Source: Patescibacteria group bacterium (lineage in GTDB: Bacteria; Patescibacteriota; Saccharimonadia; Saccharimonadales; UBA10212). Taken from it: a stretch of 29,268 bases of DNA. The notes beneath the pieces were generated by a model. It ran no database searches and was not told where the DNA came from. It saw nothing but the letters and a program-made list of their open reading frames with translations. Within the stretch, counting starts at the first letter, position 1, and the number at the start of each line of letters is the position of its first letter. The stretch is from assembly GCA_038062805.1 (NCBI GenBank), contig JBBTWK010000030.1, positions 1-29,268 on the forward strand, given 5' to 3'. Shown here piece by piece: positions 7,839-9,211 of the stretch. The position numbers and the translations under genes are program-made.

Positions 7839-7879
7839 GTCATAAATTTAGATGAGATGTAACAATTTGTAAATGCTTA

Positions 7880-7895
7880 TGGAGGGCCTTAGTGG
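7880..7895 (-). repeat. Degenerate copy of the tRNA-Lys 3' end (att-like)
   Basis: TGGAGGGCCTTAGTGG versus the tRNA's TGGAGGGCCCAGTGG at 8885. Confidence 0.6.
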
Positions 7896-7934
7896 AAAGT
7901 ATTGTGATTAAATTGCAGGATAATCCTAAGCTGT

Positions 7935-8483
7935 TTATTCTTGCTTTTCCAGATACCGCTTGAAGCTATCAACCCCCTGGACATCATTTTTTAGCACAGC
8001 ATCATAAATGACTACAGTTTCTATATCTTCGGGCAGTAAGCCATCGCGCCTTGCCACTTTCAGTTCAAGTATTTGTTCTTTTTGAGCGTCACTATAGCGA
8101 GAATACAGCTCTCTCGGAGGCAACATCTCGGCTAATTCACTTGGGGAAACCATCAATATATCTACTTTCCATCTATGACCCCTGAAATCCTGTTTTATGC
8201 AAAAGTAGGGTCTGGCAGGTACATTTGTCGACCAGTCGCAAAACATAATGCTATTCCACCAGCCATTATTTATAAGCGCAATCGTCATCTCATCGGCAAG
8301 TTTTCTGGTGGGCTTTTCAGTACTTACAAAGAAATCTATGTCAGAATCGAGCATTAAATCGTACACATAACTGCCAGTTGGGGTAACTTTGCCAAACTTT
8401 TCTAGCAGCTCTATTATTTTTGAGGATTCTACAAGAACAGTAGCGTCATCGTGCCAGCGTTTTGACTCTTTAAGTAAGTTCAT
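7935..8483 (-). CDS. Putative Pol-beta-superfamily nucleotidyltransferase
   Basis: TGSYVYDLMLDSDIDF (GS...DxD) and a later WKVDI strand carrying the third carboxylate. Confidence 0.65.
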   Translation of the reverse strand: MNLLKESKRWHDDATVLVESSKIIELLEKFGKVTPTGSYVYDLMLDSDIDFFVSTEKPTRKLADEMTIALINNGWWNSIMFCDWSTNVPARPYFCIKQDFRGHRWKVDILMVSPSELAEMLPPRELYSRYSDAQKEQILELKVARRDGLLPEDIETVVIYDAVLKNDVQGVDSFKRYLEKQE

Positions 8484-8497
8484 CTCATCATCATAAC

Positions 8498-8520
8498 AAA
8501 AACGACCAGCAAGGTCGTTT
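8498..8520 (-). terminator. Intrinsic terminator following tRNA-Lys 3' repeat copy 3
   Basis: AAACGACC-AGCAA-GGTCGTTT stem with a U-run on the minus strand. Confidence 0.6.
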
Positions 8521-8534
8521 AAGTATAAGTATCT

Positions 8535-8550
8535 TGGAGGGCCCAGTGGG
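8535..8550 (-). repeat. Exact 16-nt copy of the tRNA-Lys 3' end
   Basis: TGGAGGGCCCAGTGGG, identical to 8885-8900. Confidence 0.9.
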
Positions 8551-8681
8551 GTGAGCGCACATCTGCGCTCGTCCTCGGAGTAAACTTTTGTGGGCGAGCT
8601 TGATGACCGAACCCACGACTGGCATCTTCGCCTATGGCGAATCTACGTCGTGGAACCGGAAGCCCACAAGAACAACCACGC

Positions 8682-8705
8682 AAAAAGCCGACCACAAGGG
8701 TCGAC
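8682..8705 (-). terminator. Intrinsic terminator following tRNA-Lys 3' repeat copy 2
   Basis: GCCGACC-ACAAG-GGTCGAC stem next to an A5 run (U-run on the minus strand). Confidence 0.6.
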
Positions 8706-8713
8706 TCTTTGCG

Positions 8714-8735
8714 TGGAGGGCCCAGTGGGATTCGA
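8714..8735 (-). repeat. Exact 22-nt copy of the tRNA-Lys 3' end
   Basis: TGGAGGGCCCAGTGGGATTCGA, identical to 8885-8906. Confidence 0.92.
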
Positions 8736-8851
8736 GTTATTCTGCGGCTGCGCAAAATGCAAGCATTGCACGAGCCGGCCAAGCAAGGAAAACTCAAAAG
8801 TCCACCGGACTTTCTCGCCCTACGGGTTTGAATCCCCGAAACCATACCAAC

Positions 8852-8876
8852 AAAATACCCCATCACAAGGATGGGG
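8852..8876 (-). terminator. Intrinsic terminator of tRNA-Lys
   Basis: CCCCATC-ACAAG-GATGGGG stem with a minus-strand U-run, just 3' of the CCA. Confidence 0.7.
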
Positions 8877-8884
8877 CACTTTGT

Positions 8885-8961
8885 TGGAGGGCCCAGTGGG
8901 ATTCGAACCCACGACACGCGGCTTAAAAGGCCGCTGCTCTAACCAACTGAGCTATGGGCCC
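8885..8961 (-). tRNA. tRNA-Lys(UUU), CCA encoded
   Basis: Reverse complement GGGCCCA-TA-GCTC...GAGC-A-GCGGC-CTTTTAA-GCCGC...GTGGG-TTCGAAT-CCCAC-TGGGCCC-T-CCA, a full cloverleaf. Confidence 0.97.
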
Positions 8962-9211
8962 TCGTCGGAGTAAGCTACCAGCTTGCGACGACGAGCAATT
9001 AACTAGCGTTCTTTGCTCGTGTCTTCAGCTTCTCGCTACTCCTCCTCTTCAATTTTGCAAAATCTGCTACGCACGATTTCACAAAATTGGGTTAAGACCA
9101 ATGCTGCGTGAATGCAGCACGAAATAACACCTTACATTATCTGTTTTTTAGCCAAAAAGTCAAACACAAGCAGTTAATTTTTGGCGAGGGCTGTGACATT
9201 ATTGTCCCAAG

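Follow-up and report, generated by a model that had tools for sequence, protein, structure and literature searches.

The 3' end of a tRNA-Lys(UUU) gene in a Saccharibacteria genome probably carries a stack of two different kinds of insertion: a gene cassette and, between this cassette and the tRNA, two short non-coding modules, designated here A and B. The window, meaning the whole stretch of DNA analysed, is an entire 29-kb contig (29,268 nt, C30) of a 699-kb assembly that comprises 101 contigs and is 91% complete (designated G000); related sequence records carry the labels Candidatus Saccharibacteria or Saccharimonadales. Surveys of cassette end sites and recombinases covered 301 genomes of the order, and searches for the module families covered 61 related genomes. 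Counts of genomes with sites or with the recombinase discussed below include the unpublished genomes G068, G289 and G306, and no specific claim rests on these three. Among the papers searched that treat Saccharibacteria together with gene cassettes, integrons, serine recombinases or insertions in the T-loop, none was found to describe either layer of the locus. The features of the locus are as follows.

9136–9163, minus strand: promoter-like site upstream of the tRNA (TTGACT-16-GATAAT, 10 of 12 positions in a consensus scan), in a stretch conserved in G002; its function is putative.
8885–8961, minus strand: tRNA-Lys(UUU), the anchor (ARAGORN; Rfam tRNA, 75.4 bits), whose last 9–22 nt are the repeated sequence.
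8714–8884, minus strand: module A, 171 nt, consisting of a hairpin (8847–8884), an inverted T-arm copy (8824–8837), a core (8736–8823) and a tail copy (8714–8735).
8535–8713, minus strand: module B, 179 nt, consisting of a hairpin (8676–8713), a spacer (8620–8675), a T-arm copy (8607–8619), an insert (8552–8606) and a tail (8535–8551).
8484–8534, minus strand: 5' module of the cassette, with the start motif AGATACTTATACTTAAA, a hairpin and T-run (8500–8520) and a TATGAT box resembling a -10 element just before the ATG.
7935–8483, minus strand: cargo of the cassette, a 182-aa nucleotidyltransferase-fold protein (Pfam NTP_transf_2, a weak match, E value 1e-5).
7880–7908, minus strand: 29-nt 3' end site of the cassette, ATCACAATACTTTCCACTAAGGCCCTCCA, 25 nt of which are shared with G186, G137 and G204; this is the 'degenerate copy' of the tRNA end in a preliminary description of the locus.
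7860–7879, minus strand: flank after the last site, TAAGCATTTACAAATTGTTA, compared with G003, G066 and G048; the putative right half of an attachment site.

The tRNA-Lys gene is intact, and a direct repeat of its last 9 nt, GGCCCTCCA, stands at each junction. Its last 16 nt recur exactly at both 8714 and 8535, with the match at 8714 running to 22 nt, and at 7880 the last 9 nt are exact and the 3' strand of the T-stem is also matched if one indel is allowed; the spacings between these copies are 171, 179 and 655 nt. The window contains exactly three occurrences of TGGAGGGCCCAGTGGG, at 8535, 8714 and 8885, a number reached in 0 of 100 shuffles. Of the six occurrences of GGCCCTCCA in the 699-kb genome, each is either part of one of the two tRNA-Lys genes or stands immediately behind one of these genes on its strand. 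Hairpins with T-runs are located on the tRNA strand at 8887–8847, 8716–8676 and 8520–8500, their loops reading CTTGT, CTTGT and TTGCT (ACAAG, ACAAG and AGCAA on the plus strand). Exact matching and a hairpin scan agree with the tail copies, spacings and loops given in the preliminary description, which was also right that the last interval holds a single nucleotidyltransferase-like gene, here the 182-aa open reading frame (ORF), and that no integrase is present, as the contig has neither a tyrosine nor a serine recombinase. Its proposal of serial, integron-like capture by an integrase acting in trans is supported for the gene cassette (7880–8534) but not for the two short units, which belong to conserved structured families found at many tRNAs and are without a cassette-type end site. 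The parallel it drew with the repeat units of Escherichia coli tyrT likewise fails, modules A and B being unrelated to each other and not tandem duplicates. Both tRNA-Lys genes of the genome (8885–8961 in the window and C100:5645–5721) have U instead of A as the discriminator (..GGCCC-T-CCA).

Modules A and B are members of conserved non-coding families and not cassettes, each combining a hairpin, a T-arm antisense segment and a partial copy of the cognate tRNA with a structured T-loop insert. In module B, the base of the long hairpin pairs the tRNA's CCA with a TGG, and the spacer comprises an antisense copy of the variable-loop/T-stem segment together with a small hairpin. Positions 8607–8619 then copy the variable loop, the T-stem 5' strand and TTCGG; the 55-nt T-loop insert is followed by the 3' strands of the T-stem and the acceptor stem, the discriminator and the CCA of the tRNA itself. 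This layout is constant across loci and therefore identifies the module as a partial copy of the 3' third of the cognate tRNA, with the insert placed after T-loop position 57. Homologs are present in 26 of the 61 relatives, across many families of the order, and in 25 of 30 fetched loci the module directly follows a tRNA gene (Lys, Arg, Val, Pro, Asp, Asn, Met, Phe, Ile or Gln). The tail is mostly that tRNA's own: the best downstream copy matches 13–16 of the last 16 nt in 17 of these 25 loci. RNAalifold predicts that the helices stack into a rod, which the T-stem closes, with 19 pairs of which 11 show compensatory changes; 92.5% of cells pair, vs 79.3% in shuffles and 30–63% when the partners are slid, and the observed score was reached in 0 of 500 shuffles. 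One U-G pair is near-invariant (16 of 17 sequences). Module B is also kept at an orthologous position. At the orthologous locus, the G000 and G001 copies are 81% identical, compared with 72% for the DNA of comEC, and in G057, from another family, the module occupies the same site between yebC and rimK with 77% identity in one comparison and 74% in another that spanned the full module, compared with 67–69% for those genes. A second copy in G000, behind tRNA-Lys(CUU) on contig C100, nonetheless has a UUU-type tail.

Module A also pairs the tRNA's CCA with TGG at the base of its hairpin; its core (8736–8823) is conserved and contains two covarying hairpins, the variants having been read straight from the sequences rather than formally counted, and its tail, preceded by the remainder of the T-loop, copies 22 nt of the tRNA. 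Homologs are found in 36 of the 61 relatives, and those examined with a tRNA in view stand behind Pro, Trp, Leu, Lys or Arg genes, mostly with the cognate tail. A second copy in G000 (C88:5211–5320, minus strand) is 89% identical and ends in a tRNA-Glu(UUC) tail. This copy is divergent from the tRNA-Glu(UUC) gene, lies about 70 nt upstream of it and is preceded by a perfect TATAAT, and it may be a separately transcribed unit. The two modules are unrelated to each other, sharing only the hairpin plan and the tail, and neither matched an Rfam family at permissive thresholds in the window and four other loci, where tRNAs were the only matches. The covariation of the helices and a conservation at least equal to that of neighbouring genes therefore indicate that the modules are not scars in decay but are selected as a folded strand, be it of RNA or of single-stranded DNA.

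What such a folded strand does admits two answers. Our best guess is that modules A and B are copy-and-paste DNA modules that ride on tRNA genes while sparing them, with a role as RNA nearly as likely. Under the latter explanation, the modules would be genes or cis-elements for functional structured RNAs, associated with tRNAs through function rather than mobility, and would serve either as 3' trailers controlling the maturation or termination of tRNA-Lys or as stable small RNAs displaying a tRNA-like CCA end. We regard this as a real possibility that falls somewhat short of persuading us. The helices covary, including those built of tRNA-specific sequence; module B is kept at an orthologous position across families; the near-invariant U-G pair points to the tRNA-sense strand as the one that folds; module A has a copy on C88, with its TATAAT, that stands apart from any co-oriented tRNA; and a hairpin with a T-run follows each module. 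However, a good hairpin with a T-run also precedes each module, and at module B no room is left for a promoter between that hairpin and the conserved body, which argues against independent transcription. Furthermore, a true tRNA-like minihelix cannot form because the 5' acceptor strand is absent, no Rfam family matches, and the modules occur in only two or three copies per genome at varying tRNAs, so that no tRNA consistently needs one. A third idea, that the modules combine an omega-RNA or guide-RNA scaffold with a 17-nt 3' guide, was dropped when no TnpB (PF07282) match was found in G000.

The copy-and-paste guess extends to a kinship, argued from layout alone, with GIY-YIG-bearing insertions at two other tRNAs of G000. 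At C56:3101–3557 (L006) and C74:1863–2315 (L007), tRNA-Asn and tRNA-Asp are followed by TTCGAC, a conserved structured stretch of about 85 nt and a small GIY-YIG ORF (97 aa long in the first case and 91 aa in the second, as open frames), and then by an 18-nt copy of the respective tRNA's own tail, exact at tRNA-Asn and with one mismatch at tRNA-Asp. These ORFs are inserts within a displaced T-loop-to-CCA copy, on the plan of modules A and B, and each of the four small GIY-YIG ORFs of G000 adjoins either a tRNA gene or a tail resembling that of a tRNA. Invasion of a gene by a mobile GIY-YIG ORF that brings a replacement for the end of the gene is known from phage T4, where SegB lies in the tRNA cluster, and from the hybrid atp6 gene of Allomyces. 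The likeness to these lies in the T-loop-interrupted, displaced T-loop-to-CCA copies at tRNA-Asn and tRNA-Asp; the difference is that modules A and B have no ORF and that a nuclease target and its cleavage are hypothetical here. A hammerhead-like reading of TTCGAC...CGAAGGAC at the two tRNAs was rejected, as the core did not fit by eye and Rfam returned nothing. Some module tails (L012 and L038 in G002 and L029 in G003) contain an extra insert of about 25–35 nt (..CCTGAGC..GTCGAAGGC..), which separates the 3' strand of the T-stem from that of the acceptor stem and resembles the GIY-YIG-associated motif.

The distal unit of the stack (7880–8534) would belong to a family of one-gene cassettes that extends across the Saccharibacteria. 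Its 3' end (7880–7908) is identical over 25 nt to the sites GTTRCAATACTTTCCACTAAGGCCCTCCA of G186 (four copies), G137 and G204, and the supposed degenerate copy is therefore a well-kept site. At its other end, the start layout (ATACGCTTATGCTTAAA plus a hairpin) recurs at cassette starts in G001, G066, G137, G303 and G318; thus, the third of the 'terminators' in the preliminary description (8500–8520) is a part of the cassette. The flank TAAGCATTTACAAATTGTTA resembles AAGCATAAGC, a motif located behind many tRNA-Lys genes and behind last cassettes elsewhere. The possibility that cassette ends carry a whole decayed tRNA-Lys was rejected by local alignment against shuffles (p 0.05–0.83). Homologs of the nucleotidyltransferase are confined to five of the 301 genomes; one in G066, from a distant family, again lies behind tRNA-Lys(UUU), in a cassette that ends AGTTTCCACTATAGCCCTCCA with the same variant of the end site. 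The cargo returned nothing with phmmer against the PDB and nothing in NCBIfam, and a structure search of the Atlas listed AbiEii-type toxin nucleotidyltransferases among its nearest structural neighbours (TM score 0.85), a lead only. Relatives of the AbiEii family modify tRNA 3' ends, and the position of this cargo among mimics of tRNA ends is thus curious.

Among congeneric genomes, both the number and the content of the units downstream of the tRNA vary, so that the comparison across relatives called for in the preliminary description finds a locus that is not invariant:

G000, downstream of tRNA-Lys(UUU): module A, module B and the nucleotidyltransferase cassette.
G001, downstream of tRNA-Lys(UUU): module B and a 983-nt cassette with an APH-family kinase.
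G003, downstream of tRNA-Lys(UUU): a fusion of module A with the tail of the module B insert, a 252-nt cassette and a 727-nt cassette, the cassette cargo being two ORFs of unknown function.
G002: a 701-nt cassette followed by a variant of module B; the stretch that was fetched showed no tRNA.

Every cassette at this locus in the genus ends ..GGCCCTCCA, preceded by a conserved arm. Searched with at most one mismatch, the pattern GTTGC-N10-AC-N3-RGCCCTCCA is present in 106 of the 301 genomes, while its reversed control gave one match, and the sites cluster on one strand in arrays of up to 19 sites, a number attained in one genome. The pattern was also found in at least 120 stretches of public genomes, nearly all labelled Saccharibacteria. 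The 303 sites of 119 loci are spaced by a median of 684 nt (quartiles 500 and 919), and the anchor is tRNA-Lys(CUU) 55 times, tRNA-Lys(UUU) 17 times and tRNA-Asn once. Five pairs of cassettes are common to different species (83–97% identity), the similarity ending at the sites and the neighbouring cassettes being different; cassettes are therefore discrete and exchangeable, and independently so, as their turnover among congeneric genomes and their gene-sized spacing also indicate. The sampled cargo comprises a nucleotidyltransferase, an APH-family kinase, NUDIX and HAD proteins, an EamA transporter and many unknowns, along with a toxin-antitoxin-like pair in G066 that was recognized by eye rather than by family search. 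This last pair, an antisense PIN-toxin/antitoxin-like arrangement at locus L080, is situated between two identical, full-length tRNA-Lys(UUU) genes of the same array, and some insertions therefore bring a whole copy of the tRNA. The end site is conserved at specific positions, in sequence rather than in structure. Stretches of 71 nt round three cassette-end sites folded no better than shuffles (z -0.2 to +0.7; one further stretch that was folded lay outside the listed sites), so the site is not attC-like. After the core, 56 of 105 cassette starts match neither of the start motifs.

These observations can be accommodated in a single scheme. Each cassette would bring its own insulating hairpin and promoter-like box at the 5' end and would close with a conserved site of about 29 nt, the last 9–10 nt of which are the tail of tRNA-Lys. 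Because a cassette ends in that tail, a site-specific recombination event within GGCCCTCCA would insert it while rebuilding the tRNA or an existing tail copy, leaving one more tail copy behind, and repeated rounds would build integron-like arrays. Modules A and B would add further docking points for cassettes because they, too, end in tRNA-type tails. The enzyme is most likely a member of a clade of large serine recombinases (the Lys clade) encoded on larger elements that would have inserted at the same place, the stop codon of the recombinase gene falling 41 nt inside tRNA-Lys.

The case for this enzyme comes from the relatives. In G055, tRNA-Lys(CUU) is followed by a gene on the opposite strand for a 555-aa large serine recombinase, at L241:11426–13093 (minus strand), then by five ORFs, a site and a cassette array; the recombinase has Resolvase, Recombinase and zinc-ribbon domains, and its stop codon lies 41 nt inside the tRNA gene. 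Seven of eight homologs with at least 53% identity likewise end exactly 41 nt inside a tRNA-Lys. When the excised junction was rebuilt in silico, the reading frame of the recombinase stayed open in the reconstructed attP form. More distant clades of recombinases end inside tRNA-Asn, Trp, Tyr, Gly or Arg (one Tyr example comes from the unpublished G068, on which the claim does not depend), and two further recombinases overlap tRNA-Glu and tRNA-Met. Across these loci (L244–L273, L242 and L243), each clade ends at a fixed distance inside one convergent tRNA, 41 nt for Lys and mostly 65 nt for Arg.

A large serine recombinase at an attachment site with the same target is found in relatives and not in G000, where tyrosine and serine recombinase matches occur solely on contigs C74, C79 and C76. 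The genome's only large serine recombinase is a short 419-aa form that is 34% identical, does not lie at tRNA-Lys and has its best NCBIfam similarity to CcrB, far below the family cut-off; a recombinase at tRNA-Lys, which the preliminary description proposed to look for, was found in relatives but not in this genome. Three other array-bearing genomes, G137 and G001 (both 99% complete) and G318, gave no Resolvase-domain match. Upstream of eight large arrays, no recombinase was found, the genes there including those for a Mur ligase, FolD, a histidine kinase and glycosyl hydrolases, and tblastn detected a serine recombinase nearby in 2 of the 119 site-bearing loci. As most array genomes examined, G000 included, are without a Lys-clade recombinase, the cassettes would be non-autonomous and moved in trans, which is the reading that fits the distribution of the recombinase and leaves homologous exchange as its rival.

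Several points weigh against the scheme as a whole. Lys-clade recombinases are present in about 9 of the 301 genomes, compared with 106 for the sites, and none was found in G000, at 91% completeness. The site pattern had no match in viral contigs, and a vehicle for the enzyme is thus unseen. The cassette of the window stands behind module B, whose tail, the putative attachment site, matches the tRNA over only 16–17 nt. Recombination itself has been deduced rather than directly observed, and the position of the crossover and the action in trans, like the origin and function of the modules, are read from the arrangement of sequences. For the modules, a copying enzyme is conjectural, as is their transcription, against which the lack of promoter room at module B also speaks.

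The principal competitor for the cassette layer, in our judgement an unlikely one, is exchange by homologous recombination after natural transformation. The conserved junctions (about 45 nt, end site plus start motif) or the conserved flanks would supply the homology, and the elements with a serine recombinase would have no more than the target in common with the cassettes. Natural competence and homology-based integration of linear DNA are established for Saccharibacteria (PMC10633639), comEC adjoins this very locus, most array genomes examined have no Lys-clade recombinase and some have no serine recombinase at all. Yet the homology at the junctions is short and only partly conserved, with more than half of the cassette starts (the 56 of 105) matching neither start motif, and the end site is conserved position by position in the manner of a protein-binding site. 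In addition, the recombinase-bearing element of G055 sits exactly in the position of a cassette, between the tRNA-Lys tail and a site, and the recombinase clades track the identity of the tRNA.

A second competitor, which we consider very improbable, would explain all four tail copies as scars of serial integrase-mediated integrations, with modules A and B as the decayed remains of larger elements; this extends the proposal of the preliminary description to every unit. The 3' ends of tRNA genes are classic attachment sites, and the T-loop is said, after Williams in 2002, to be a known place of crossover. Successive integrations leave tandem partial tRNAs in tycheposon islands (bioRxiv 10.1101/2020.12.28.424599). 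However, units A and B form conserved families in which compensatory base changes occur, are conserved at least as well as adjacent coding DNA, stand beside more than 10 tRNA identities with mostly cognate tails, and end in tRNA-type tails instead of the 29-nt cassette-type site; the conservation, covariation and cognate tails disfavour this explanation, since decaying scars would show none of them.

Finally, it is scarcely credible that the cassettes owe their movement to the one Xer-type tyrosine recombinase of the host, in the manner of Xer-exploiting elements and pdif modules. A single Xer-like recombinase is present in every genome checked, and the left arm of the site, GTTGCGATA, may loosely recall an arm of E. 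coli dif, but the site has no 11-6-11 dyad, the sole dyad visible by eye extends across the start motif with about 14 nt between its arms, and the linkage to a serine recombinase explains site and target directly.

The cassette layer resembles an integron in appearance and, if cassettes are moved in trans by a Lys-clade recombinase, would work most like the composite arrays of the staphylococcal cassette chromosome (SCC). SCC and SCCmec elements, inserted at rlmH (orfX) of staphylococci by CcrAB or CcrC, likewise combine a large serine recombinase with insertion at the 3' end of an intact housekeeping gene, direct repeats of the target end at every junction, and a tandem build-up of units, many of which are without a recombinase and depend on one in trans. 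They differ from the present system in target and host, here a tRNA gene of Saccharibacteria, into which the recombinase gene itself reads, and in their units, which here are mostly single genes of about 0.5–0.9 kb with their own hairpin and promoter-like box, in arrays that reach 17 or more units. With sedentary chromosomal integrons and clusters of attC sites lacking integron-integrases (CALINs), the likeness is in the co-oriented arrays of one-gene cassettes of similar size, each closed by a recombination site, in a cargo of accessory enzymes, transporters and unknowns, and in a recombinase that is often not near the array. In contrast to integrons, two defining features are absent here, the IntI tyrosine recombinase with its attI and the folding of the end site into an attC-like hairpin; the cassettes have their own promoter-like box and hairpin where integron cassettes use the common Pc promoter, and the array is anchored at a tRNA gene with a serine recombinase as the candidate enzyme.

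Two further systems share features with the stack. The 178-bp repeats of E. coli tyrT, associated with rtT RNA, also form units of about 175 nt downstream of a tRNA, each with the tRNA 3' end. At tyrT, each unit is a tandem duplicate nearly identical to the others, whereas units A and B are mutually unrelated, each drawn from a family spread over many tRNAs and genomes, and gave no Rfam match to rtT. Tycheposons are cargo elements at a few tRNA genes of a streamlined genome, where successive integrations push older elements inward and leave partial tRNAs (bioRxiv 10.1101/2020.12.28.424599, Hackl et al.). The anchoring at tRNAs and the pile-up of partial tRNAs are common to both systems; however, tycheposons are several kb in size, most of them equipped with a tyrosine recombinase and replication genes of their own, in contrast to the single-gene units, dedicated conserved end site and candidate serine recombinase described here.

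The genomes of Saccharibacteria and of other ultra-small episymbionts are tiny, and the exchange of accessory genes among these organisms is little understood. It is enticing to speculate, as a tentative view that we hold with slightly less than even confidence, that Saccharibacteria possess a gene-capture platform unlike integrons, in which tRNA-Lys genes serve as landing pads, a dedicated clade of large serine recombinases, mostly provided in trans by rare autonomous elements, gathers self-expressed one-gene cassettes into long arrays, and the tRNA-mimic modules are selected parts of the whole. In such a platform, the modules would be, for example, extra docking tails or regulators of the tRNA end, and not junk. 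If this is true, much of the gene flux in the group would pass through arrays anchored at tRNA-Lys as a main route, such arrays having been found in about one-third of the genomes sampled from the order, and integrons would have an independent counterpart based on serine recombinases. Because each recombinase clade is paired with its own tRNA target, the clades would also provide ready-made site-specific tools from nature for organisms that have only just become open to genetics. The modules point to a second, unexplained phenomenon, that of structured elements copying the 3' third of the adjacent tRNA, whichever tRNA this is.

Two observations concern other parts of the G000 genome. A tRNA-Arg(UCU) gene is present twice in complete form at C100:13049–14804, the two copies being separated by about 1.6 kb with one long ORF, and a repeat beginning GTGTGCGTTNCACGCCGG.. 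is found on three contigs, at C15:1047, C46:14987 and C91:915.

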